NCBI GenBank assembly: GCA_963666365.2
Contig: CAXXNF010000002.1
Coordinates: forward strand, 1,120,001 to 1,184,000
Direction of reading: 5' to 3'
Length of the DNA: 64,000 nucleotides
From: Syntrophales bacterium
GTDB lineage: Bacteria; Desulfobacterota; Syntrophia; Syntrophales; UBA2210
Below are positions 50,744-64,000 of this stretch, piece after piece. Made by a program: the position numbers and the translations under genes. Numbering within the stretch: position 1 is the first letter of the stretch; the number at the start of each line of letters is the position of its first letter. Under the pieces are notes generated by a model, which was not told the DNA's origin, did no database searches, and saw only the letters and a program-made list of their open reading frames with translations.

Positions 50744-51025
50744 TGCCCTCTTCCTCGGCGCAATAACATAGGACAACATCATGCAAACCCCATATGCCCG
50801 TTCCCAAAGGTCAAATCACCAATTGCGGTTGCTCGTTAGGATACACAGCTCTCCACCACACAACATGGTTCTTACCCGTACCCCGCATGCAATTGGCCGA
50901 TTGTCCAATGTCAGCACTACGTGCATCAGTGCTGCCTGTGAATGTAACCTCGATTCCTCATGATATCAAGGAGAAAAAGCGTTCCTGTCGTGCTGTCAAT
51001 AATTATGCGCACTGTCCCCGACCTT

Positions 51026-51796
51026 AATTCCGGGGACAGTATACTTAATTCAGTGTTTCCCTTTCGGCCCCGGTTTTTGTTTCCGAACTACACGGTCAAT
51101 AACCTTCTCGACGTAATCAACAAATTGACTGCTTCCCAACGGCCTGCCTGTCCTCTCGTGTAAACGTAAGCGCTGCCCATCTTTATCTTGCACATCCAGC
51201 TTCAGGAACGAATGCCAGTCAGGTACAAGAGCAATTAACGGTTCAACTTTGATTAAATTGTCATCCTCTCCCCGTATGTGAGCACGAGCACTGCTCCACT
51301 TGTAATCCGCAGGCCTCGTCACAAGGCCCGCCCGAACGGGGTTCAACTCGATATATCGAGCAGCAGCAAGGAGATGCAGCTCGTCCATTGGGAAAGAAAA
51401 AAAGCGCTCCTGCCACAAGTGCCCGCGCCACTCGTGGCTGAAATTTATCATCCGCGTATATTGCCGGTGTGCTTCGCCAATCGCAAAGCGTAAGCTGTCA
51501 GACCGTGAGGGAACCGCAATGAGATGTACATGGTTCGGCATAAGACAGTATGCCCAGATTTCAACACTGTGCTGTGTGCATGACTGCCTCATAATGTTGA
51601 TATACTGCCGATAATCATTGTCAGAAAAAAAGTCTGCAGTCGCCGATTTCCCCGCTGAGTGATGTGATGGGGAACATCAGGAACAACAATCCGAGCCATT
51701 CGTCCCACTAATTCAGTGCGTCTCCTTTCAACTTCTGACTGTCAATAATTATGTATACTGTCCCCGGAATTTGGAAAGTATACTGTCCCCGGAATT
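51026..51796 (-). mobile_element. inverted-repeat-flanked HUH/Y1 (RAYT-like) transposase element, copy 1
   Basis: Inverted repeats at 51026-50 and 51747-71 (extra end copy 51777-96) enclose the transposase gene. Confidence 0.8.
51050..51708 (-). pseudogene. RAYT-like Y1 transposase, frameshifted
   Basis: 659 nt versus 660 nt in intact copies; one base missing next to the A7 run at about 51631 (AAAAAAAGTC vs AAAAAAATGTC). Confidence 0.85.
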
Positions 51797-51842
51797 AAGA
51801 CGAAATTACGAGCCCCCAGAATTACGCTGAATTATCCCGGAA

Positions 51843-52172
51843 TTACCCAGAATTATCGCCCCCAAAATTACTCTTATCTCGGGATTCACTTTCATCGGAA
51901 TATTCTCTTTTTTTAAACAATTCTTTCATGCATATTTTTAACGCACCTCCACCTATATTTGCTTTTGAAATAGCAGTTATCATGATAAGCAAGAAAAAAA
52001 ATATAGCAATTAATGGTATTGAAATATATTGAGGTAAGTAACTGCTTATAAAAATAATTAGTTTTCTGAATATCCAGACAATAAACCAAAAAGTAGGAAA
52101 TATAAGTAGTGCAACAAATACACCCGCTACAATTTTAACTATGCTGCTCAATTTTTCTTTTTTTGTGGGCAT
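51843..52172 (-). CDS. putative immunity protein for orphan toxin tip 2 (two TM helices)
   Basis: AT-rich small membrane ORF starting 8 nt after the orphan toxin stop; its 3' end runs into the AATTA tract. Confidence 0.65.
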   Translation of the reverse strand: MPTKKEKLSSIVKIVAGVFVALLIFPTFWFIVWIFRKLIIFISSYLPQYISIPLIAIFFFLLIMITAISKANIGGGALKICMKELFKKREYSDESESRDKSNFGGDNSG

Positions 52173-52180
52173 ATTATAAC

Positions 52181-52799
52181 CTATTTACAAGGAGATGATT
52201 TATTTTCATTGATATCTTCTTCGATTTTTTGAAAATAAAATAATAAAGGATCAAATGTTGTCCTTACTAATAAATCAGTCATACCTTGCCCAAGGCTGTT
52301 TGCTTTTACTTCCAAATAATCTCTTTCAGCATCAGAATATTCGTAGTGCCAGTCATACCAATTTGGTCCATGTTTTTTCCATTGCAGCCCCTCCGGATCC
52401 ACTCCGTTCACTGGATCGTTCATGCAGTATCCGTAGAGGTCGGTGCTGCCGCCGGCGAAGAGGATGGGGTCTTTGGCGGTCCAGCGGCCGGTGTCGGGAT
52501 CGTAGTCGCGGTGGCCGAATCTGATGAGGCTGGTGTCGCGGTCGTGGAGCCCCCCGGCAAAGCCGAAGGGAATCGCAAGTGTCGGGTTGCTGTCTGTGAT
52601 GATGGTGCCGAAACTGTCGTAGATGGTTTCTTTTACTATATTTCCGCTCTCGTCGGCAACTGTTTTGAGCGAGCCGACCTGATCATAGGCCAAATAGTAG
52701 GACCCGCCGCTTGTGGTCATGGCATAGGGCATTCTGCCGTCAGCATATTCAAAGCGCATGAGCAGGGCGTCGCTTCCATCATAGACGGCAAGCAGCCTG
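52181..52799 (-). pseudogene. orphan Rhs core fragment with alternative 67-aa C-terminal tip (cassette 2)
   Basis: About 0.41 kb nearly identical to 61390-61804; PVNGVDPEGL then unique QWKKHG...SSPCK; 5'-truncated at the repeat. Confidence 0.85.
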
Positions 52800-52828
52800 A
52801 TCTTAATTCCGGGGACAGTATACTTAAT

Positions 52829-53008
52829 TCAGTGTTTCCCTTTCGGCCCCGGTTTTTGTTTCCGAACTACACGGTCAATAACCTTCTCGACGTAATCAAC
52901 AAATTGACTGCTTCCCAACGGCCTGCCTGTCCTCTCGTGTAAACGTAAGCGCTGCCCATCTTTATCTTGCACATCCAGCTTCAGGAACGAATGCCAGTCA
53001 GGTACAAG
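52829..53008 (-). pseudogene. 3' part of RAYT-like transposase copy 2
   Basis: Encodes LVPDWHSFL...KPGPKGKH*, as in the other copies. Confidence 0.85.
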
Positions 53009-53135
53009 GTAAGCGTACGACCAACTCATATAGCAAAAGAATTTTACATGAAGTACGCTGTACCTAAAACCGGTACAGCCGGTGCTCTTTGATAATATGA
53101 TTACGGGATTCAACCGCCGGAATACGGTGCACTGA

Positions 53136-54746
53136 TTATTGTTTTCCCTGGATGATCAGGCCCCGTTCATCCCTGGGCACAGGCTTCCACTGATCGGGAA
53201 GCAGTTCCCGCAGGCGGTTTACGGGATGGCTCATGATCCGCCGAAGCATGTCGTCAAAGTACTCCCAGGGGTTGACGTCGCAGTTTTTGCAAGATTGAAC
53301 GAGACCCATATAAAGGGCCGCCGCCCGGCCGCCCCGTTCGCTGCCCACGAAGAGCCAGTTTTTTCGACCTACCGCTATGGGCCGAATGGCGTTTTCCGCC
53401 AGGTTGTTGTCGGGTCTTAACCGTCCGTCTTTCAGATAGCGGCAGAGCGCCTCCCGCTGATTCAGGGCGTAGTTGATGGCCGTCCGCAACGGCTCCGAGG
53501 GCGTCGTCCGGGGCCTCAGTTCCTCAATCTTTGCAAAGATTCCCTCAAGCAGCGGCGTTGCATGCGCCTGCCGGAAACGGCGCCGCTCCTCGGGCGTCAT
53601 CTCGGCACAGGGGGTCTCCACCTCGTGATAGAGCCGGGCGATGCGGGCAAGGATGTCCGTGGCCTCTTGAGGACGCGATGAAACCGCCTCGTCGAACTTC
53701 CGTCTGGTATGGGCCCAGCAACCCACTTCGATAATCTCTTCTTTTTTGAAAAGTTCGTCGTAGCCGCCGTAGGCGTCGGCATGGACGTACCCCTGGTAAT
53801 CATTGAGATACTCCAGTGGGCGCGTCTTGCTCCGATCAATGGAGAAGTCATAGGCCGTCAGCGGCGGTCCCGGACCGCCCCGCAGATAGACCCAGAGACG
53901 GGCCTTCTTTACCTTGCCGTTTCCCTTGACCTGCAGAGGAACGGGCGTATCGTCGGTAAAGAGCACGTCCCTCTCAAGGACGGCCTTTTGAAGCACTGTT
54001 TCCAAGGGACGAATGCTCTCATAGACCTGCATGAGCCAGCTGGTTTGGGTGGCCCGGGGAATGTCCACTCCTTCCCGCTCCAGAATGCTGTTCTGTCGGT
54101 AGAGAGGCAGATGATCGGCGTACTTGCTGACGATCAGATGAGAAAGCAGCCCCACGTCGGCTTTGCACTTGGCGATGGGGTGATCGGGCAGCGAGGCGGC
54201 GATGACGCCGGCGGTAGATTCCGATGCCTCCGGCAGCGCATACTGGGGCCGCTTGTAGACGTTGACGATCAGTCTCCCCGGCCGGTATTCCAGCTTCTCC
54301 GAGACTTCCACGGAAATGACCTTCAGGGGTGCGCCCGTGTCCGCATCGATCTTTTCATCCTCGGGCACGTCCAGCAGAATCTCCACCCGTTCGAGATGCT
54401 CCGGAATGGGAACCCGGCCGTGATGCCGGGAGGCCTTGCGGGGCTTCTTGACAGTCTCTGTGGCAGAAGCGTCTTCGAACTGTGCTTTCACCGCCGCATT
54501 CTGCTCTAATGATTGAAGCACCATGTCGTCGAACATCAGCTGACCGGGGTTGATCTTTTCGGACTTGCGGCCGTAGAGCCGTTTCAGCAGCTGTTCCATC
54601 TGATGCTGCAGGGTGGTCAACTGGCGCTGGGCGGATTCGAGCTTCTGGGTAAGCGCTTCGATCTGGGCATCCTTTTGGGCGGCAAATTCCAGAATCCAGG
54701 CAGCATCTTTTCGGTCGATAATCTCTTGTGCTTCCGTCAATATCAT
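53136..54746 (-). CDS. tnpC: IS66 DDE transposase TnpC
   Basis: LYGRKSEK, KYADHLPLYRQ, DDTP, CWAHTRRKF, DNNLAENAIR, GRKNWLF. Confidence 0.95.
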   Translation of the reverse strand: MILTEAQEIIDRKDAAWILEFAAQKDAQIEALTQKLESAQRQLTTLQHQMEQLLKRLYGRKSEKINPGQLMFDDMVLQSLEQNAAVKAQFEDASATETVKKPRKASRHHGRVPIPEHLERVEILLDVPEDEKIDADTGAPLKVISVEVSEKLEYRPGRLIVNVYKRPQYALPEASESTAGVIAASLPDHPIAKCKADVGLLSHLIVSKYADHLPLYRQNSILEREGVDIPRATQTSWLMQVYESIRPLETVLQKAVLERDVLFTDDTPVPLQVKGNGKVKKARLWVYLRGGPGPPLTAYDFSIDRSKTRPLEYLNDYQGYVHADAYGGYDELFKKEEIIEVGCWAHTRRKFDEAVSSRPQEATDILARIARLYHEVETPCAEMTPEERRRFRQAHATPLLEGIFAKIEELRPRTTPSEPLRTAINYALNQREALCRYLKDGRLRPDNNLAENAIRPIAVGRKNWLFVGSERGGRAAALYMGLVQSCKNCDVNPWEYFDDMLRRIMSHPVNRLRELLPDQWKPVPRDERGLIIQGKQ

Positions 54747-54798
54747 GAGCGGGCGTATAGCACATAACTATAATAATGTCAAGTGTTTATATTATTTT

Positions 54799-55140
54799 TT
54801 ATGCACATATTTTGTACCGTTTTCCCACTTTTTTCGGCACGATTCCCTCAAGGAGCATGGCCAGATCCCGGCGCTCGATATGACCGTCGCGGGACTGCCG
54901 GGAAGGCAGCACGAAGGACCCCTGCTCCAGACGTTTCAGCCAGATGGCCATGCCGTCGCTGTCCCAGTACAGGAGCTTCACCATGTTCCGCCGCCGGTTG
55001 ACGAAGACGAAGAGTGATCCCGAAAGGGGATCGGCGCTAAGTTCGGCGCGGACAATGCCGCACAGGCCGTCGAAGGACTTGCGCATGTCGCAGGGGCTGC
55101 GATAAAGATAGATGCGTGCCGATGCTGTCAGGCCGAACAT
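54799..55140 (-). CDS. tnpB: IS66 accessory protein TnpB
   Basis: DMRKSFDGL, LFVF.NRRR..VKLLYWD..G, KRLEQG.F. Confidence 0.95.
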   Translation of the reverse strand: MFGLTASARIYLYRSPCDMRKSFDGLCGIVRAELSADPLSGSLFVFVNRRRNMVKLLYWDSDGMAIWLKRLEQGSFVLPSRQSRDGHIERRDLAMLLEGIVPKKVGKRYKICA

Positions 55141-55439
55141 GGGGAACCATTATGAAGCGTTTCAATAACGGTGCGCAGGGTAACGGGATCGAAGCCGCGT
55201 TCCACTTCGATGGAAAGAAGCGGCCCCATGCAAATGCGAATGCCGGCATAGTCGGCCGTCGAGGATGCAAGTTCGATAAATCCCTGTTGTCCTTGCGGTT
55301 CAGTGAGTTTCCGGCGCCAGGAGTAGAAACTTGCCGTATTGATCTGATGCATCTGGCACCAGGCCAGACCGCTCATCCCGCTTGCGATCTGCCGCTCTAC
55401 GATGGCCGACCAGTGGGCGGTGCGTTCTTGTTGTGTCAT
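55128..55439 (-). CDS. tnpA: IS66 accessory protein TnpA
   Basis: W..IV..Q.ASG.S..AWC, FYSWRRKL; start set at MTQQER. Confidence 0.88.
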   Translation of the reverse strand: MTQQERTAHWSAIVERQIASGMSGLAWCQMHQINTASFYSWRRKLTEPQGQQGFIELASSTADYAGIRICMGPLLSIEVERGFDPVTLRTVIETLHNGSPCSA

Positions 55440-55529
55440 AGGGCATCCTCCAATCATGAAATGTGTTCATGACGGGAAGCTATAATCCAATGTGCGTTCA
55501 AGCGAAAGATGAGTTGGTCGTACGGTTAC

Positions 55530-56017
55530 GGTACAAGAGCAATTAACGGTTCAACTTTGATTAAATTGTCATCCTCTCCCCGTATGTGAGCACGAGCACT
55601 GCTCCACTTGTAATCCTCAGGCCTCGTCACAAGGCCCGCTCGAACGGGGTTCAACTCGATATATCGAGCAGCAGCAAGGAGATGCAGCTCGTCCATTGGG
55701 AAAGAAAAAAAACGCTCCTGCCACAAGTGCCCGCGCCACTCGTGGCTGAAATTTATCATCCGCGTATATTGCCGGTGTGCTTCGCCAATCGCAAAGCGTA
55801 AGCTGTCAGACCGTGAGGGAACCGCAATGAGATGTACATGGTTCGGCATAAGACAGTATGCCCAGATTTCAACACTGTGCTGTGTGCATGACTGCCTCAT
55901 AATGTTGATATACTGCCGATAATCATTGTCAGAAAAAAATGTCTGCAGTCGCCGATTTCCCCGCTGAGTGATGTGATGGGGAACATCAGGAACAACAACC
56001 CGAGCCATCCGTCCCAC
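55530..56017 (-). pseudogene. 5' part of RAYT-like transposase copy 2 (truncated by IS66)
   Basis: MGRMARVVVP...HVH...YIELNP...PLIALVP, then a stop supplied by the IS66 end. Confidence 0.85.
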
Positions 56018-56137
56018 TAATTCAGTGCGTCTCCTTTCAACTTCTGACTGTCAATAATTATGTATACTGTCCCCGAAATTTGATGGCGCCGAATAATTAT
56101 GTATACTGTCCCCGAAATTTCTGTCCCCGGAATTCTA

Positions 56138-56488
56138 TTAAAACCTTTTCTTTCTGTAAAAAAATATAAAAAAAATTCTAATGGGCCAAGCCAAGAAAAC
56201 CGCAATAAAAACGAAAATCGCGCTGATGTTTGGTATGGCTTTAATAAAGAATGAAGCCGCACCGTTAAGAAGAGTCAAGGTGGCCATCAAAAAGCATATA
56301 GCCGCTGCCAACCGATCCCCCATGTTTAAAATTTTTTTTTCTTTGAGATCAGGAAAGAAGAAATGGTCTATATCGAATCTATTTTTTATGATTTTTCCTT
56401 TGTTGTGCCAAATTCCTTCTATAAACATTAAACCGATCATAATCATAATAAAAGCAAGGATGGTGTTAATAGCTATAGGCGATGTCAT
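56138..56488 (-). CDS. putative immunity protein for orphan toxin tip 1 (three TM helices)
   Basis: AT-rich membrane ORF directly after the orphan toxin stop; its stop codon is 3 nt from a repeat end. Confidence 0.7.
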   Translation of the reverse strand: MTSPIAINTILAFIMIMIGLMFIEGIWHNKGKIIKNRFDIDHFFFPDLKEKKILNMGDRLAAAICFLMATLTLLNGAASFFIKAIPNISAIFVFIAVFLAWPIRIFFIFFYRKKRF

Positions 56489-56495
56489 ACCACTC

Positions 56496-58112
56496 TCACT
56501 TTCCACACGGCGATGATGAAGTCCTTATTGGTGTTGTAAAGTTAACTGGTAAACCTAACCCCAAGCCCAAACCAACTGAAACTCCATCGATATATTTTAA
56601 GGGATCATACCATGCTTTATTAGGATCAAACTCATTCCTTAAGGTGATCTGAGCACCACCATATCTGCCTGAACCAATCGCAATCGTTGACCCAGCTTGG
56701 TTACCTGTTCCACTTAAATCTGAGACACCCGCTGAAACACCAATATCTGCCCACACACCAGCCACGGCCTCAGGTTTTGGATCTGTCGCTACTAAATGAC
56801 CTGATGCATCTAAACTTGTTAGCTGTGAACCTACCGTGCCTCCAACTGCAACGGGCCAAGGGCCAGTCGGAGCATGAACACCAGCGTTATAAGAAAACAT
56901 CCATCGCCCCTCCGGATCCACTCCGTTCAACGGATCGTTCATGCAGTATTCGTATAGGTCGGTGTCGCCGCCGGCGAAGAAGATGGGGTCTTTGGCGGTC
57001 CAGCGGCCGGTGTCGGGATCGTAGTCGCGGTGGCCGAATCTGATGAGGCTGGTGTCGCGGTCATGGAGCCCCCCGGCAAAGCCGAAGGGAATCGCAAGTG
57101 TCGGGTTGCTGTCTGTGATGATGGTGCCGAAGCTGTCGTAGATGGTTTCTTTTACTATATTTCCGCTCTCGTCGGCAACTGTTTTGAGCGAGCCGACCTG
57201 ATCATAGGCCAAATAGTAGGACCCGCCGCTTGTGGTCATGGCATAGGGCATTCTGCCGTCAGCATATTCAAAGCGCATGAGCAGGGCGTCGCTTCCATCA
57301 TAGACGGCAAGCAGCCTGGTCAATCCGAGCCAGAGGTATTTTTCGATGATGACGCCATTGACTGCTTTGGCGATCCTTCGCCCCAGCGGATCATGAACGT
57401 AATCGATGGCGGTGCCGTCGGGAAGCGTGACGCCCATAAGTTCTCCCCGGCTGGAGTAGTCGTAGGTGGTGGTGTTTCCCGAACCATCTGTTCTGGTAGT
57501 CAGAAAGCCGTCCACGCTATACTGATAGGAAGTGTCCCCGACCGTCAGAAGGTGATCCTCGTCGGAGTAGGCGTAACTCCTGCCCGCAATCCCCCTCAGA
57601 CTGTTCATCTCATAGACCCTGACGCCGCTGAGATCATACTGGTATTCTTCCACCAAATTCCCGTTTTCATGCACTGTGCACAGCCGACCTGCGCAATCGT
57701 AACCATAATCGTAGGAGTTTGTTTCACCGCCGATGGTTTCCGTTTTTTCGATGATTCTCCCGTTGCTGTCCCGAACGGCGTGCCAGCCGGCTACCGGTTG
57801 GGAGGCAATGCTGCAGGTTTCCTCTTCTAATTCGCCATAGCCGTTATAGCTTCTCTCCACTGACAGATTGCCGTCAGCAACAGATTCGGGAAGACCGTTG
57901 CCGCTATTTCTGGCAATGGAGAATCGTCCCGCACCGGTAAGCAGACGATCCCTGTCATAGGAATATTCTTCCCTGTCGCCGGCATAGGCAACCCCAACAA
58001 GATTGAAGTCGCTATTGTAGGAGAAGCCGAGCGACTGCGCAATCGTACCGCTGTGATGCGCTTCGGTGACCAGTGTTCCGTCGTAGCTGTAGTCGATTGT
58101 CTCCGTGCCGCT
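56496..58112 (-). pseudogene. orphan Rhs core fragment with alternative 135-aa C-terminal tip (cassette 1)
   Basis: About 1.2 kb colinear and nearly identical with 61390-62598 (offset 4486); DPEGR then unique WMFSYN...SSSPCGK; frame is open to the repeat but has no native start. Confidence 0.88.
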
Positions 58113-58117
58113 AGGGG

Positions 58118-58291
58118 AATTCCGGGGACAGTATACTTAATTACTGACAGCCGGTAATTAAAAGACTGGCAGACCGTTGGGAAGCAATCAGTTTACAGAT
58201 AATGTTGAAAAACTGTTTGACCGTATGGTTCGCAGACAGAAGCCTTGGCCGAAAGGAAAAAATCTGAATTAAGTATACTGTCCCCGGAATT
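58118..58291 (+). mobile_element. 174-bp non-autonomous miniature derivative of the HUH element
   Basis: Perfect 25-bp terminal inverted repeats; interior is a diverged element leader fused to the diverged transposase 3' end (TGRPLGSNQFTDNVEKLFDRMVRRQKPWPKGK). Confidence 0.85.
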
Positions 58292-58492
58292 TGAATTATG
58301 TCGCTGGTCCAGTTTTGCCGGACCGGTTCCTCTTGAACAATTGTTGCCTTTGGGCAACAGTTTTTACTTTTGATTTGGTGAATTCCAGGGGCAGTAAATA
58401 AGTATGCTGTCCCCGGAATTAGCATAAATATGATTTGATAACAAGAGATTGAAAGGGGGATAGGAAGAAGTGCGATTTCTGGTGCGGTCACT

Positions 58493-58915
58493 TCATTGCC
58501 TTTTTATGAGCCATTCACCTCCCCGTTTGTACAGAATGAGGGGATTGTCCGATTGGTGTGTATTACCATATACTCTTACCCATCCTTCCGAGGGACATGA
58601 CCCCGCCCAGTATGTACGGATCGTATATTTACATTTTCCTTGACTCCCCTGGCTTTCCGTGGGTTTGACGCATTTGGTGCTTTTTGCCGGGACATACAGG
58701 TCGATGGGATTTCCCCACGTGCAATCGCCTATTCCGGATCCGCTTCCGCAAGGACTTCCACCGGAATCGACGCATATATATACGTGCCACCCTTTGCTCT
58801 CCGTATTTTTGATACAGATACCCGCCGATACGGTAGTAACCGACAGGAGTAAGATGATCAAAGGAATGGCCATATACCCGGTTATTATTCTTAATATTGG
58901 CGCGATCTTCATCAT
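58493..58915 (-). CDS. Cys-rich secreted hypothetical protein
   Basis: SD AAGGAGG, signal peptide ending VSA, 7 Cys in the mature part. Confidence 0.7.
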   Translation of the reverse strand: MMKIAPILRIITGYMAIPLIILLLSVTTVSAGICIKNTESKGWHVYICVDSGGSPCGSGSGIGDCTWGNPIDLYVPAKSTKCVKPTESQGSQGKCKYTIRTYWAGSCPSEGWVRVYGNTHQSDNPLILYKRGGEWLIKRQ

Positions 58916-59020
58916 TGATATCCCTCCTTTATTGGAAAATTAACCTTATTCCATCTTCCCCCTTTCTGTAAGTAATGTCCTTCTGAGAAGGTAATGTCAA
59001 GATAATTTTGACTATTTTGG

Positions 59021-59832
59021 AATTCCGGGGACAGTATACTTATTGGAATTCCGGGGACAGTATACTTAATTCAGTGTTTCCCTTTCGGCCCCGGTTTTTG
59101 TTTCCGAACTACACGGTCAATAACCTTCTCGACGTAATCAACAAATTGACTGCTTCCCAACGGCCTGCCTGTCCTCTCGTGTAAACGTAAGCGCTGCCCA
59201 TCTTTATCTTGCACATCCAGCTTCAGGAACGAATGCCAGTCAGGTACAAGAGCAATTAACGGTTCAACTTTGATTAAATTGTCATCCTCTCCCCGTATGT
59301 GAGCACGAGCACTGCTCCACTTGTAATCCGCAGGCCTCGTCACAAGGCCCGCCCGAACGGGGTTCAACTCGATATATCGAGCAGCAGCAAGGAGATGCAG
59401 CTCGTCCATTGGGAAAGAAAAAAAGCGCTCCTGCCACAAGTGCCCGCGCCACTCGTGGCTGAAATTTATCATCCGCGTATATTGCCGGTGTGCTTCGCCA
59501 ATCGCAAAGCGTAAGCTGTCAGACCGTGAGGGAACCGCAATGAGATGTACATGGTTCGGCATAAGACAGTATGCCCAGATTTCAACACTGTGCTGTGTGC
59601 ATGACTGCCTCATAATGTTGATATACTGCCGATAATCATTGTCAGAAAAAAATGTCTGCAGTCGCCGATTTCCCCGCTGAGTGATGTGATGGGGAACATC
59701 AGGAACAACAACCCGAGCCATCCGTCCCACTAATTCAGCGCGTCTCCTTTCAACTTCTGACTGTCAATAATTATGTATACTGTCCCCGAAATTTGATGGC
59801 GCCGAATAATTATGTATACTGTCCCCGAAATT
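59021..59832 (-). mobile_element. HUH/Y1 transposase element, copy 3
   Basis: Doubled repeats on both sides (59021-42, 59047-71; 59766-94, 59805-32). Confidence 0.82.
59071..59730 (-). CDS. RAYT-like Y1 (HUH) transposase, intact
   Basis: HHITQRGNRR, YCLMPNHVH (HUH), LWQERF, YIELNPVRA (catalytic Tyr), YKWSS. Confidence 0.92.
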   Translation of the reverse strand: MGRMARVVVPDVPHHITQRGNRRLQTFFSDNDYRQYINIMRQSCTQHSVEIWAYCLMPNHVHLIAVPSRSDSLRFAIGEAHRQYTRMINFSHEWRGHLWQERFFSFPMDELHLLAAARYIELNPVRAGLVTRPADYKWSSARAHIRGEDDNLIKVEPLIALVPDWHSFLKLDVQDKDGQRLRLHERTGRPLGSSQFVDYVEKVIDRVVRKQKPGPKGKH

Positions 59833-59837
59833 ACGCC

Positions 59838-60612
59838 CAGTATACTTAATTCAGTGTTTCCCTTTCGGCCCCGGTTTTTGTTTCCGAACTACACGGTCAA
59901 TAACCTTCTCGACGTAATCAACAAATTGACTGCTTCCCAACGGCCTGCCTGTCCTCTCGTGTAAACGTAAGCGCTGCCCATCTTTATCTTGCACATCCAG
60001 CTTCAGGAACGAATGCCAGTCAGGTACAAGAGCAATTAACGGTTCAACTTTGATTAAATTGTCATCCTCTCCCCGTATGTGAGCACGAGCACTGCTCCAC
60101 TTGTAATCCTCAGGCCTCGTCACAAGGCCCGCTCGAACGGGGTTCAACTCGATATATCGAGCAGCAGCAAGGAGATGCAGCTCGTCCATTGGGAAAGAAA
60201 AAAAACTCTCCTGCCACAAGTGCCCGCGCCACTCGTGGCTGAAATTTATCATCCGCGTATATTGCCGGTGTGCTTCGCCAATCGCAAAGCGTAAGCTGTC
60301 AGACCGTGAGGGAACCGCAATGAGATGTACATGGTTCGGCATAAGACAGTATGCCCAGATTTCAACACTGTGCTGTGTGCATGACTGCCTCATAATGTTG
60401 ATATACTGCCGATAATCATTGTCAGAAAAAAATGTCTGCAGTCGCCGATTTCCCCGCTGAGTGATGTGATGGGGAACATCAGGAACAACAACCCGAGCCA
60501 TCCGTCCCACTAATTCAGTGCGTCTCCTTTCAACTTCTGACTGTCAATAATTATGTATACTGTCCCCGAAATTTGATGGCGCCGAATAATTATGTATACT
60601 GTCCCCGAAATT
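59838..60612 (-). mobile_element. HUH/Y1 transposase element, copy 4 (tandem, downstream repeat truncated)
   Basis: 780-bp period relative to copy 3; only CAGTATACTTAATT of the downstream repeat remains. Confidence 0.8.
59851..60510 (-). CDS. RAYT-like Y1 (HUH) transposase, full length with WQERF>WQESF change
   Basis: 219 aa; differs from copy 3 by R>S and A>E. Confidence 0.9.
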   Translation of the reverse strand: MGRMARVVVPDVPHHITQRGNRRLQTFFSDNDYRQYINIMRQSCTQHSVEIWAYCLMPNHVHLIAVPSRSDSLRFAIGEAHRQYTRMINFSHEWRGHLWQESFFSFPMDELHLLAAARYIELNPVRAGLVTRPEDYKWSSARAHIRGEDDNLIKVEPLIALVPDWHSFLKLDVQDKDGQRLRLHERTGRPLGSSQFVDYVEKVIDRVVRKQKPGPKGKH

Positions 60613-60623
60613 ACGCCAGGATG

Positions 60624-60971
60624 TTATTGGAGCCTGTTTGTTGTTTTTATTATCCCCATTTTCATCAAAATATACATAAAAACAAAAAAGGTGGGCACAA
60701 AACTGCAAAGATAATAAGATCCTAATTTTTTCATTAGGCTTATATCTTCGACAAAAAACCATATAATCTTAACTGGAAACCAAATTGCAGCAAATCCAAA
60801 TAAAACAGGAAGAGCAATCCTCCATAATATGTCAAATCCATACAACCAAAAATTTCTTTGTCTTTTTTCAACAACAATATATTTTTTAAATTTATTTACA
60901 TAGACGAGCAAGGCGCTAACTCCTAAAGCCACCAGTATTGCAAAAAGACATACAATGATTTTAGCTGCCAT
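60624..60971 (-). CDS. putative cognate immunity protein of the main Rhs toxin (three TM helices)
   Basis: AT-rich membrane ORF 19 nt downstream of the toxin stop. Confidence 0.7.
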   Translation of the reverse strand: MAAKIIVCLFAILVALGVSALLVYVNKFKKYIVVEKRQRNFWLYGFDILWRIALPVLFGFAAIWFPVKIIWFFVEDISLMKKLGSYYLCSFVPTFFVFMYILMKMGIIKTTNRLQ

Positions 60972-60990
60972 AATTATATCTCACAATCAT

Positions 60991-63900
60991 TTAATAGTTA
61001 GCATTAGCATGAAGTGTCGTTGACACCCCTCCAGCTATAGCGCCACTGAAAAAGGCAGCATCAACAGCTACTGTTCCCCCTTTGAGCATAGCCGTGCCAG
61101 CACCTCCCCCAATAGCACCAGCTAATGCATTAATTGCAACAGAAAGTGTGTCAATATGACCGCACGGCTTTGAAATTTTTTGTCCAATTAGATCCGATGT
61201 TACTCCAACACCTGCCCCTATTGCCGCATTCACTAGAACAGATGAGCCAAACGATATTCCCGCCAAAGCTCCAACAGCGGCACCCATGAAAGCCCCTTTG
61301 ATAATACTTTCTCTCTTGAAAATTGCATCGGCAGTTCCAATTGCGGCACCCACAGCGGCACCAACTCCGGCAGCGGCCAAATTTATAAACAACCCCTCCG
61401 GATCCACTCCGTTCACTGGATCGTTCATGCAGTATCCGTAGAGGTCGGTGCTGCCGCCGGCGAAGAGGATGGGGTCTTTGGCGGTCCAGCGGCCGGTGTC
61501 GGGATCGTAGTCGCGGTGGCCGAATCTGATGAGGCTGGTGTCGCGGTCGTGGAGCCCCCCGGCAAAGCCGAAGGGAATCGCAAGTGTCGGGTTGCTGTCT
61601 GTGATGATGGTGCCGAAGCTGTCGTAGATGGTTTCTTTTACTATATTTCCGCTCTCGTCGGCAACTGTTTTGAGCGAGCCGACCTGATCATAGGCCAAAT
61701 AGTAGGACCCGCCGCTTGTGGTCATGGCATAGGGCATTCTGCCGTCAGCATATTCAAAGCGCATGAGCAGGGCGTCGCTTCCATCATAGACGGCAAGCAG
61801 CTTGGTCAATCCGAGCCAGAGGTATTTTTCGATGATGACGCCATTGACTGCTTTGGCGATCCTTCGCCCCAGCGGATCATGAACGTAATCGATGGCGGTG
61901 CCGTCGGGAAGCGTGACGCCCATAAGTTCTCCCCGGCTGGAGTAGTCGTAGGTGGTGGTGTTTCCCGAACCATCTGTTCTGGTAGTCAGAAAGCCGTCCA
62001 CGCTATACTGATAGGAAGTGTCCCCGACCGTCAGAAGATGATCCTCGTCGGAGTAGGCGTAACTCCTGCCCGCAATCCCCCTCAGACTGTTCATCTCATA
62101 GACCCTGACGCCGCTGAGATCATACTGGTATTCTTCCACCAAATTCCCGTTTCCATGCACTGTGCACAGCCGACCTGCGCAATCGTAACCATAATCGTAG
62201 GAGTTTGTTTCACCGCCGATGGTTTCCGTTTTTTCGATGATTCTCCCGTTGCTGTCCCGAACGGCGTGCCAGCCGGCTACCGGTTGGGAGGCAATGCTGC
62301 AGGTTTCCTCTTCTAATTCGCCATAGCCGTTATAGCTTCTCTCCACTGACAGATTGCCGTCAGCAACAGATTCGGGAAGACCGTTGCCGCTATTTCTTGC
62401 AATGGAGAATCGTCCCGCACCGGTAAGCAGACGATCCCTGTCATAGGAATATTCTTCCCTGTCGCCGGCATAGGCAACCCCAACAAGATTGAAGTCGCTG
62501 TTGTAGGAGAAGCCGAGCGACTGCGCAATCGTACCGCTGTGATGCGCTTCGGTGACCAGTGTTCCGTCGTAGCTGTAGTCGATTGCCTCCGTGCCGCTGG
62601 TAACGGATGCCACCTTTGTGCCGCACAGATAGGTATAGTGTATGCTTCCTTCCGGTGTAAGAACCTGCGTGAGCCGTGCGCCATCGTAGATATGTTCAAT
62701 CCGGTTTCCCGAGGGGAATGTGGTGCAGATAAGGCGCCGGTCTTTGTCATAGAGATAGCGATACGCCCCGCTGACAGGCGCCTGATAGAGCGAAAGATTG
62801 TTGACCCTGTTATAGTCGAAGATATGGCTGACGGAGGCGGGCGTCACAAGGGTTTCACGATTTCCATTTGCATCATAGCCGAAGTAAAGAACGCTATCGT
62901 CCGGCCGATAGAGGGCCGTCATCCGCCCTGCCGGGTCATAGTCATAGGTAGTGGTGAAACCCTGCGGATCGGTCCAGGAAGAGCAAAATCCTTCACCGTT
63001 GTAACTCCAGGTCATCTGCCGTGTTCCCTGTGTCAGAGATGTAAGCCTTTCTCGTCCATCGTAGCCGTAGAAGGTGTCAAAAAGACCGGGGACGCTGCTG
63101 CTTGTGATAAGAAGGGTTGCCGAGTCGTAGGCAGTGTTCGCGGTCCTTCCCTCCGGCGAGATTGCCGTCTTTTGTGACTGAATGACATCCTTTTCTAGAA
63201 CCGCAGCATTGCCGTTAACATTGACGGTTTCGGTAATCAGATCGAAAATCCCGTCGCTGTCGGTGTCTGCATACGATTTGCTCCGTTCGGTCGTCCGCTC
63301 CAACCCCGAGGGAGTGCGTTCCGTCATGGTCGTTATGTAAGGGTATTTATACTGCGGGTCCGTATCGTAGGTAAAGGCAAGATTCATTCCGCAGGACAGT
63401 GTCTTCTTTACCGAAAGACCGTCGGCCGATCGATTGAACAGAGTGGCGCTCCCGGTAGGATCAGTAATAATGGACGCGTATGCCCCTGTTGAATCAGTCC
63501 TATCCAGATAGGATGTCCTATTGCCTTCCGCCGTGAGAACATTGACAAGAACGGCCCCGTTTTCAAGGAGGGCTCGTTCATAATTCCAGCATCCGCCTTC
63601 TTCATCGAGTGCATCGGTAAGTCGACCGGTTGAATCGAAGAGGTGATCGAATCTGTTTCCCGACGGTTCCGTCTCGACGAGCAAAAGCCCCTCGGGCGTG
63701 TAATCAAAGGTGTAAACGGCGCCATCGGGACCTGTAACACCGGTAAGATGGTTGTGCTCATCTATAGTCAACGTGGTAATCAGCCCGTCGGAGGAGACAA
63801 TGGCCGTGGGAATGCCGTCTCCATCGCGTTGCAGTGCAACGACAGCGCCGAAACGGTCATAAATGGCAGTCAGGTTATTATTATCGTCGTATTCGAATCG

Positions 63901-63999
63901 GTACAGCATCACCCCAGTATCGGGATCTATTGTTTGTGTATGCAACCCCGCAGCGGACATAATATAGGCCATGCCGTCATTATCGACAAACACAAGGTC
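60991..63999 (-). CDS. YD-repeat/Rhs toxin, teneurin-like; N-terminus beyond the window; 132-aa Gly/Ala-rich C-terminal tip
   Basis: Many YD repeats; Rhs-associated core FGFAGGLHD...RDYDPDTGRWTAKDP; PVNGVDPEGL cleavage motif. Confidence 0.92.
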   Translation of the reverse strand, partial: DLVFVDNDGMAYIMSAAGLHTQTIDPDTGVMLYRFEYDDNNNLTAIYDRFGAVVALQRDGDGIPTAIVSSDGLITTLTIDEHNHLTGVTGPDGAVYTFDYTPEGLLLVETEPSGNRFDHLFDSTGRLTDALDEEGGCWNYERALLENGAVLVNVLTAEGNRTSYLDRTDSTGAYASIITDPTGSATLFNRSADGLSVKKTLSCGMNLAFTYDTDPQYKYPYITTMTERTPSGLERTTERSKSYADTDSDGIFDLITETVNVNGNAAVLEKDVIQSQKTAISPEGRTANTAYDSATLLITSSSVPGLFDTFYGYDGRERLTSLTQGTRQMTWSYNGEGFCSSWTDPQGFTTTYDYDPAGRMTALYRPDDSVLYFGYDANGNRETLVTPASVSHIFDYNRVNNLSLYQAPVSGAYRYLYDKDRRLICTTFPSGNRIEHIYDGARLTQVLTPEGSIHYTYLCGTKVASVTSGTEAIDYSYDGTLVTEAHHSGTIAQSLGFSYNSDFNLVGVAYAGDREEYSYDRDRLLTGAGRFSIARNSGNGLPESVADGNLSVERSYNGYGELEEETCSIASQPVAGWHAVRDSNGRIIEKTETIGGETNSYDYGYDCAGRLCTVHGNGNLVEEYQYDLSGVRVYEMNSLRGIAGRSYAYSDEDHLLTVGDTSYQYSVDGFLTTRTDGSGNTTTYDYSSRGELMGVTLPDGTAIDYVHDPLGRRIAKAVNGVIIEKYLWLGLTKLLAVYDGSDALLMRFEYADGRMPYAMTTSGGSYYLAYDQVGSLKTVADESGNIVKETIYDSFGTIITDSNPTLAIPFGFAGGLHDRDTSLIRFGHRDYDPDTGRWTAKDPILFAGGSTDLYGYCMNDPVNGVDPEGLFINLAAAGVGAAVGAAIGTADAIFKRESIIKGAFMGAAVGALAGISFGSSVLVNAAIGAGVGVTSDLIGQKISKPCGHIDTLSVAINALAGAIGGGAGTAMLKGGTVAVDAAFFSGAIAGGVSTTLHANANY

Positions 64000-64000
64000 G

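Follow-up and report, generated by a model that had tools for sequence, protein, structure and literature searches.

Truncated Rhs orphan cassettes adjoining TIRtron tips in a Syntrophales genome, and the recurrence of this arrangement in other loci

A window of 64,000 nucleotides (nt) from a Syntrophales bacterium (genome G000, C2:1,120,001-1,184,000) carries an rhs locus in which two truncated copies of the main gene, here called orphans, each begin within a few nucleotides of the outer tip of a TIRtron, an element with a Y1 transposase, or of a derivative of one. The window is the whole stretch analyzed, and its coordinates are used unless stated; L-numbers stand for fetched loci, G-numbers for genomes (G000 being the source genome), and C1 and C2 for its contigs. 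The link between Rhs orphans and TIRtron tips is real and recurrent, it joins two known kinds, Rhs orphan arrays and TIRtrons, and it was not found in print, searches of the openly accessible literature having returned no published connection of TIRtrons or RAYT-type elements with Rhs orphans.

Along the minus strand the locus reads main rhs, immunity, E1, E2, ORF140, MITE, orphan 1, immunity, E3, orphan 2, immunity, E4 (Table 1), where E1 to E4 are copies of the TIRtron, MITE is a miniature inverted-repeat transposable element, and ORF is an open reading frame. Identity among the three rhs copies breaks off at the same base (61390 / 56904-07 / 52385), beyond which the C-terminal tips of the main gene, orphan 1, and orphan 2 are unrelated to one another, each being followed by an ORF of 109-122 amino acids (aa). 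The arrangement resembles that of Rhs orphan arrays, in which a full-length rhs is followed by silent cassettes of a near-identical 3' core fragment, toxin, and immunity. The core of orphan 1 (56907-58112) corresponds to positions 61393-62598 of the main gene over 1206 nt, at 98.8% identity (self-BLAST and base-by-base alignment), with 7 of the 14 differences falling within 52 nt (56930-56981) adjoining the tip, and the core of orphan 2 (52385-52796) corresponds to positions 61390-61801 over 412 nt, at 99.5% (self-BLAST), with 3 differences over 415 aligned positions. The identity of orphan 1 ends at 58112, AGGGG comes next, and 58118 is the first base of the repeat AATTCCGGGGACAG. Orphan 2 agrees with orphan 1 as far as 52799, followed by a mismatch at 52800 and matches at 52801-02, and the repeat beside it begins at 52805, leaving a gap of 2-5 nt. 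An earlier, sequence-only reading of this DNA had placed both orphan ends precisely here (58112, equal to 62598, followed by AGGGG and the repeat; 52799-52802, followed by the repeat after 2-5 nt), and the alignments bear it out; the unequal retained cores that it described (about 1.2 kb and 0.41 kb) measure 1206 nt and 412-418 nt. It had also claimed that no missing 5' Rhs part lies beyond the elements, and this was confirmed, because a tblastn search of the genome with the complete 2097-aa main protein detected no Rhs pieces in C2:1,170,000-1,181,000 beyond the two orphan fragments.

The repeat is confined to this part of the window: the 14-mer AATTCCGGGGACAG, with up to 2 mismatches allowed, has 17 copies, all within 51026-60612, compared to a mean of 0.65 in shuffled sequences, where 17 copies were reached in 0 of 100. 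By a rough estimate, with some 17 repeats in about 10 kb, an outer repeat end is no more than 5 nt away from about 1% of positions, and two independent chance coincidences are therefore unlikely. Between the stop codon of the immunity gene of orphan 1 and the core of orphan 2, the sequence not derived from the element amounts to 2-5 nt only.

The element to which these tips belong is a 780-bp unit, bounded by inverted copies of AATTCCGGGGACAGTATACTTAATT, with 25-nt terminal inverted repeats (TIRs) that contain GGGGACAG at all copies. It encodes a 219-aa protein with a Y1_Tnp domain (PF01797, 52.8 bits, cut-off 23), in whose translation an HVH triplet and the tyrosine within ...ARYIELNP... are discernible by eye. 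The best NCBIfam match of this protein is the REP-associated tyrosine transposase NF047646 (REP, repetitive extragenic palindrome), at 77.7 bits, just under the cut-off of 80. Because the Y1_Tnp domain and this best match are in place, and because GGGGACAG fits the motif GGGGWSAS, the AATTCCGGGGACAG repeat is taken to be the terminal inverted repeat of a TIRtron, an element with a Y1/HUH transposase, TIRYT, that is probably RAYT-like, an assignment that fits the published class. The multiple copies, the MITEs, and the dispersed TIR matches indirectly predict a mobile element that would be cleaved at its TIR tips. The motif GGGG[AT][CG]A[CG] stands beside homologous TIRYT genes across phyla, upstream in 62 and downstream in 50 of 80 loci; in TIRYT homologues from many phyla (L012-L091, 55-66% aa identity), the motif keeps nearly constant spacing to the gene, GGGGACA preceding it by about 56 nt and TGTCCCC following it after about 20-30 nt. 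Two other assignments were rejected. One is membership in the IS200/IS605 family of insertion sequences (IS): the IS200 model NF033573 scores 22.8 bits, far under its cut-off of 55, and the ends of the element are mutually inverted repeats. Another is membership among the REPIN-RAYT systems: there are four copies in one locus, with paralogues elsewhere, and the 25-mer is not self-complementary, as judged by eye.

All four full copies and both MITEs point the same way and share 97-100% identity, and a co-oriented TIRtron, or a MITE derived from one, follows every toxin-immunity module, all of them on the rhs strand. Within the genome, full copies of more than 97% identity are confined to the rhs locus, and the TIR 15-mer (up to 2 mismatches) has 59 matches genome-wide, 17 of them in the rhs locus, including many inverted pairs as well as some chance matches. 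Certain TIR pairs are able to form perfect 25-bp stems (for example, C1:200265-200313). E1 has its left-end TIR doubled (60560-60573 and 60599-60612) and its right-end TIR cut after ...GTATACTG at the joint with E2, the two forming a 780-nt tandem repeat whose joint (59838) runs via a 3-nt microhomology, CTG, inside the right TIR. The MITE at 58118-58291 adjoins orphan 1 with its outer tip. Beyond the window (L001 7641-7827), a sister MITE of the same orientation lies upstream of the main rhs, about 360 nt from its start. E3 is split by an IS66-family element with a target duplication of 8 bp, GGTACAAG; the genome has 7 identical copies of this element, a number that points to recent activity. 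On the left side of E3, a 14-nt partial TIR (56121-56134) touches the immunity stop codon.

Such partial copies form a pattern of their own, a stutter at left ends made of partial TIR copies in tandem that cover its first 8-25 nt, with a common tip start and different stops (51797-51875 and 56121-56134 in the window, L178 3940-4003, L010 1250-1420, and L194 at about 1700-1790). At least 3 copies of the tip 8-mer are present in 7 of 80 homologous loci. The stutter hints at events that recurred at the left tip, or at insertion next to it, and no mention of it was found in the accessible parts of the published TIRYT accounts.

Table 1. Features of the rhs locus, in window coordinates
Feature	Position	Strand	Remarks
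Main rhs/YD putative toxin gene	60991..64000, continuing past the window to 67284	-	2097 aa
Putative immunity gene, main tip	60624..60971	-	115 aa, small hydrophobic protein, without family match
TIRtron E1	59838..60617	-	TIRYT gene 59851..60510 intact, 219 aa
TIRtron E2	59021..59837	-	TIRYT gene 59071..59730 intact, 219 aa; right-end TIR doubled (59021, 59047)
ORF140	58493..58915	-	140 aa, no family match; between E2 and MITE
TIR-like inverted pair	58381..58420		short, REPIN-like
MITE	58118..58291		two inverted TIRs around decayed 3' end of a related TIRYT gene
Spacer, orphan 1/TIR	58113..58117		5 nt, AGGGG
Orphan 1	56496..58112	-	core 56907-58112 and unrelated C-terminal tip 56496-56906
Putative immunity gene, orphan 1	56138..56506	-	122 aa
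TIRtron E3, left part	55530..56134	-	N-terminal 163 codons of TIRYT, doubled left TIR
IS66-family element	53009..55529	-	transposase 53136..54746; inserted in E3
TIRtron E3, right part	52805..53008	-	last 59 TIRYT codons and right-end TIR; outer tip adjoins orphan 2
Orphan 2	52181..52802	-	core 52385-52799/52802 (412-418 nt) and unrelated tip 52181-52384
Putative immunity gene, orphan 2	51843..52172	-	109 aa
Left-end stutter	51797..51875		degenerate partial TIR-tip copies before E4, overlapping last immunity codons (by eye)
TIRtron E4	51026..51796	-	TIRYT gene frameshifted near codons 20-28
Degenerate left-end TIR of lost copy	50985..51025		back to back with E4 right tip

An orthologous array was not found in 40 relatives, in which the best matches to the Rhs core are 68-71% identical (G002, G003, and G008), and yet the tip-to-core architecture recurs independently, with other breakpoints and other TIRYT subfamilies. 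One example is presented by G042, of the same family and another genus, where the main rhs is followed by a left-end stutter, a TIRYT 63% identical to that of the window, and a right TIR, after which an orphan with only 60 core codons starts beyond an 8-nt gap; a further TIRYT remnant lies behind this orphan. Another example is the metagenome locus L116, in which the main rhs and immunity gene are followed by a 335-aa TIRYT of another subfamily, with Y1_Tnp and DnaA-like helix-turn-helix domains and perfect 17-nt TIRs, and an orphan begins 2-4 nt past the right TIR. A third example is the Nitrospiraceae contig L031, with an Rhs signal peptide and two YD repeats at the left end of the element and, 5 nt past the right TIR, the last 45 or so core codons, then a tip and a small gene. 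On the same contig (L031 1856-2767), a second mini-Rhs consists of the same signal peptide and first YD repeat, a 119-aa ORF (2030-2389), and the core end, the middle of the core being missing, without a TIRYT. In G144 (L194), with a third TIRYT subfamily, a YD-like frame, recognized by eye, starts no more than about 15 nt from the right TIR, and in L112-114 the outer tip of a decayed element is 6 nt from the first orphan. L171 has a module, TIRYT remnants, and then a full-length rhs. Most TIRYT remnants in the metagenome loci with relatives of the core retain only the N-terminal, left-end side, as judged by eye.

The anatomy of the locus, the tip-precise joints, and their recurrence are direct observations, and so is an asymmetry between left and right: the gaps at the right tip are always small (5, 2-5, 8, 2-4, 5, and about 15 nt), whereas the distance from the immunity stop codon to the left end is variable (0, 11, and 46 nt in the window and 294 nt in L116), and the spacers in element-free arrays measure 27-628 nt. 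The small right versus the variable left gap therefore argues against chance or simple insertion into a pre-existing spacer. Because of these three sets of distances, our tentative preference, held with somewhat less than even confidence, is that the orphan 5' ends are joints made at the right tip of the TIRtron by the element's own strand transfer. The cleaved right tip would be joined to a site inside the rhs core on the same strand, and from there two routes could be followed. By the first, the intervening DNA would be deleted, such tip-adjacent deletion trimming a downstream rhs copy or an older orphan; the sister MITE upstream of the main gene and the arrangement in L171 are plausible as pre-deletion states. 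By the second, a circle consisting of core fragment, toxin, immunity, and TIRtron would be closed at the right tip and could later enter the main gene by one crossover in the core, as in the published tip-displacement scheme. This circle route would dispense with an unstable tandem of near-identical genes and would explain the fragment identity of about 99%. The retained cores, 1.2 and 0.41 kb long and sharing about 99% identity with the main gene, could serve as homology handles for RecA-dependent tip switching. Catalysis by the transposase, the route that applied, and the order of events are what we infer from these joints.

The sequence-only reading had gone further, asserting that the element end itself created the breakpoints, by adjacent deletion or one-ended capture. 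The tie of the joints to the element end holds up, recurring as it does in G042, G144, L116, and L031, but one such step is only a candidate origin: the same product would result if an element inserted into the core and co-oriented copies then recombined. In this alternative, which we judge rather unlikely, a TIRtron or MITE inserted in the core of a downstream rhs copy, and RecA recombination with a co-oriented copy deleted the 5' part; in a variant of it, a circle of element, core fragment, toxin, and immunity was released and re-entered at another copy. Only well-established processes are required, the four full copies and both MITEs have the co-orientation and the 97-100% identity that recombination calls for, and both the E1-E2 tandem and the back-to-back remnant at 51025/51026 show that copies do rearrange here. 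Rhs sequence on both sides of the element, as in L031, would also follow from an insertion. That locus bears on the sequence-only reading as well, which took a 5' Rhs remainder across the element as speaking against it: such a remainder is present in L031 as an N-terminal piece, but most of the core is missing there, and insertion followed by recombination would have to invoke two insertions and a deletion. It would also have to start from a downstream rhs with a core about 99% identical, a tandem pair that is itself unstable; a TIRYT inside an intact core was seen in none of the 66 clusters of metagenome loci and none of the 30 usable order-level regions (both described below); and the occupation of the same place by different TIRYT subfamilies is not accounted for by this explanation itself.

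An improbable alternative is that the orphans had already been truncated by ordinary tip displacement and that TIRtrons, favoring the DNA behind immunity genes, inserted later, their closeness to the orphans being incidental. The presence of different TIRYT subfamilies at the same place does suggest repeated insertion, the partial TIR copies beside left ends suggest insertion next to existing TIRs, the shortest spacers are only 27 nt, and TIRYT genes are common behind toxin-immunity modules even where there is no orphan (16 of 44 clusters, with no hidden core ends in 19 loci). Random insertion into spacers of 27-628 nt, however, is not expected to produce at least 5 independent cases with a right gap of 2-15 nt versus a left gap of 0-294 nt, nor to leave just those 2-5 non-element nucleotides ahead of the core of orphan 2. 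We give a low probability to illegitimate recombination independent of any transposase, in which a structure formed by the inverted TIRs would stall replication or draw breaks, so that deletion ends pile up at the base of the repeat. The perfect 25-bp stem at C1:200265-200313, the 3-nt microhomology at the E1-E2 tandem joint, and joints located inside an element (C1:731005, L131, and L211) would be compatible with such a process, but the orphan joints are without microhomology, the right-end bias has no evident cause, and in full elements the TIRs are some 700 nt apart. An assembly artefact, for which the many near-identical repeats and the breaking of short-read contigs of the probable source run at these repeats might be cited, has a negligible chance, given that the same architecture is seen in independent assemblies and that a contig from the run of another organism (X15) matches the window from E4 to 52799, covering the E4 left end, immunity 2, and orphan 2. 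In run X15, one contig ends exactly at 52799 (L172 3799), and another (L172 8289, window 57289) starts 30 nt earlier on uninterrupted core; this pattern is compatible with a graph branch at the breakpoint, and both forms may be present there. The orphan 1 tip, immunity 1, and most of the main gene have no cover in the same run, and this does not show that they are absent.

Several points weigh against a joint made by the right tip. Microhomology or a pseudo-TIR at the breakpoints was considered and rejected, the lost core sequence being unremarkable. When the 24 core nucleotides lost at each of 4 junctions (with two alternative breakpoints tried for one of these) were scored for likeness to the element tip, their score was equalled or exceeded at a fraction of 0.24-0.96 of the positions in the gene in semi-global, 0.24-0.94 in local, and 0.11-0.99 in ungapped comparison. 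No common target motif was seen by eye on the kept or the lost sides of the junctions. Of the fixed distance or target motif that the sequence-only reading had proposed to look for, a small distance is what remains; it is not fixed, and neither motif nor microhomology goes with it. To our knowledge, adjacent deletion is undocumented for Y1 elements, and the accessible parts of the published accounts of TIRYTs yielded no mention of their biochemistry. Some joints lie inside the element and not at its tip, in G000 (C1:731005, a fusion of TIRYT, at about codon 65, to an Rhs fragment), in L131, and in G001 (L211). In G014, with 13 orphans in three arrays (L173-L177; C1:299-324 kb, C2:699-728 kb, and C2:986-999 kb) that share one common core joint, a TIR precedes 10 of the 13, with its inner side toward the orphan over a leader of about 70 nt, a different geometry. 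About 5 of 11 orphan junctions in metagenome arrays have no TIR, as judged by eye, and a TIRYT is found in only 3 of the 30 usable regions of the order-wide sample (L194, L211, and L216). L096, the only locus in which a homologue of any window tip turned up (the main tip at 61% identity, with its immunity gene at 38%), has no TIR in the following 327 nt. Finally, a sister strain with an intermediate state was not found among the 40 relatives or in public runs, the latter searched as short-read contigs only.

A few observations stand beside these. Co-travel of tip, immunity, and element was rejected on the evidence of L096, with no TIR behind it. The G014 leader exists as identical copies, found genome-wide only at these orphans, and may be a cassette leader or promoter. 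The Rhs fragment at C1:727,840-731,271 is a 792-aa open frame, preceded upstream by the start of a different TIRYT (its first 65 codons or so) and followed downstream by a complete TIRYT paralogue whose TIRs also contain GGGGACAG.

How general the association is can be gauged from two samples. The first comprised 80 metagenome loci encoding relatives of the core (59-72% aa identity), reduced to 66 clusters by merging near-duplicates. A TIRYT gene or fragment is present in 30 of the 80 loci. Downstream sequence of at least 1.5 kb is available for 44 clusters, and in 16 of these a TIRYT gene or remnant begins 354-1337 nt past the core end, on the rhs strand in 14 of the 16; upstream sequence of at least 1.5 kb is available for 29 clusters, none of which has one on that side. 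This enrichment and the left-end bias of the remnants are counted in favor of the right-tip joint. Short orphans hidden behind the TIRYT genes were not detected, no extra core-end motifs being present in the 19 loci scanned. From the side of the element, Rhs is rare, a core-end motif occurring in 2 of 80 loci that hold TIRYT homologues of the E type. The second sample was order-wide (201 genomes, with 40 regions fetched, 10 of them cut by a contig end just upstream of the match and 30 usable). In the source genome itself, there are orphans without any TIR at the 5' end (C1:378-388 kb), and because of these and of the TIR-free orphans in related arrays, the element is not needed for orphans in general. 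Overall, the link between Rhs and TIRtrons is recurrent and concentrated in this Rhs clade, and it is not a general rule, most Rhs arrays elsewhere being without the element.

As to the setting, the main Rhs protein has a signal-peptide-like start, teneurin-like TTR and NHL domains, and a YD shell, and its core ends in ...VDPEGL, followed by a C-terminal tip of about 130 aa with a weak glycine-zipper match; a core end of the DPxGL type is presumably a conserved Rhs motif. RHS_repeat and TEN_YD-shell domains are recognized in the main gene and orphan 1, and TEN_YD-shell alone in orphan 2. The small ORFs behind the tips are putative immunity genes by position alone, family scans of all three candidates having returned no match. 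ORF140, lying between E2 and the MITE, may be a passenger. Upstream of the main rhs and outside the window (L001 7864-15998, equal to C2:1,187,864-1,195,998), there are a 492-aa gene without family match, several genes with prepilin-type N-terminal methylation motifs, and a PIN/Phd-like pair; no type VI secretion system or PAAR gene was seen in this stretch, and no relatives of either ORF140 or the 492-aa gene were found in the fetched loci. Scans of 50900-61100 were uninformative for both promoters (19 promoter-like sites versus 12.5 +/- 3.7 in shuffled sequences) and terminators (12 terminator-like sites versus 10.1 +/- 3.9).

Rhs orphan arrays and C-terminal tip displacement were reportedly treated by Koskiniemi and colleagues in 2014, and Bertels and Rainey are said to have described, in 2011, the REPIN-RAYT systems, in which a Y1 transposase goes with short dispersed repeats arranged as hairpin-capable inverted pairs. 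A RAYT gene is usually present in a single copy, and its REPs are self-palindromes that bear a tag of the GTAG type. The present element is like these in combining a Y1 transposase with short dispersed repeats in inverted pairs, and unlike them in its multi-copy gene, in a 25-mer that is not a palindrome, and in an NCBIfam score just under the curated cut-off. H-rpt IS elements are found inside E. coli Rhs elements, and the ends of some elements, through IS-mediated adjacent deletion or one-ended transposition (IS91/ISCR), are able to remove or pick up the DNA beside them; the locus shares with the former a mobile element between rhs pieces and with the latter the idea of end-linked deletion or capture, but those transposases are DDE or rolling-circle HUH enzymes, of other families. 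Tip-precise recurrence with Y1 elements is, as far as we know, undescribed. In the model of Jackson et al. (2009; PMC2935791), tips are displaced via circular intermediates and a single crossover; the accessible part of that paper does not state how the circle is closed or what determines where the fragment ends on its 5' side, and its main text does not contain the words transposase or insertion sequence. Unlike in that model, the 5' limit of the fragment here coincides with the tip of a Y1 element. TIRtrons are described as RAYT-like Y1 genes (TIRYT) flanked by TIRs with GGGGWSAS (Di Nocera et al., 2013; PMC3733652), and the TIRYTs are subclasses 2.1, 2.2, and 2.5 of Quentin et al. (2018; PMC6006769). 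The element of the window shares with them the Y1 gene, the GGGGWSAS TIRs, and the moderate abundance of dispersed TIRs (single, paired, and clustered), and it differs in having four copies in one rhs locus, with the tips bounding orphan cassettes. No link to toxin loci is described in the accessible parts of these two papers, the word Rhs occurring 0 times in Quentin et al. (2018), and in one preprint that contains both RAYT and Rhs the two are handled separately, as far as its accessible part goes.

In conclusion, the origin of the truncated 5' ends of orphans and the source of the circles are left unexplained in the accessible part of PMC2935791, and a tip-precise Y1 joint is a testable candidate for them. 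Should the link reflect a mere insertion preference, the DNA behind immunity genes would still be marked as a hot spot for TIRtrons. For the TIRYT elements, on which no experiments are reported in the accessible parts of PMC3733652 and PMC6006769, the tip-precise joint would be a first genomic consequence. A bolder reading, which we consider distinctly unlikely, is that TIRtrons are the missing engine of Rhs tip displacement, the Y1 transposase closing circles of core fragment, toxin, immunity, and TIRtron at the right tip, or else excising or accepting DNA between tandem TIRtrons. If true, it would supply the circular intermediates that the published model only postulated, and it would amount to a cassette system for polymorphic toxins driven by an HUH transposon, with a logic like that of integrons or of ISCR capture.

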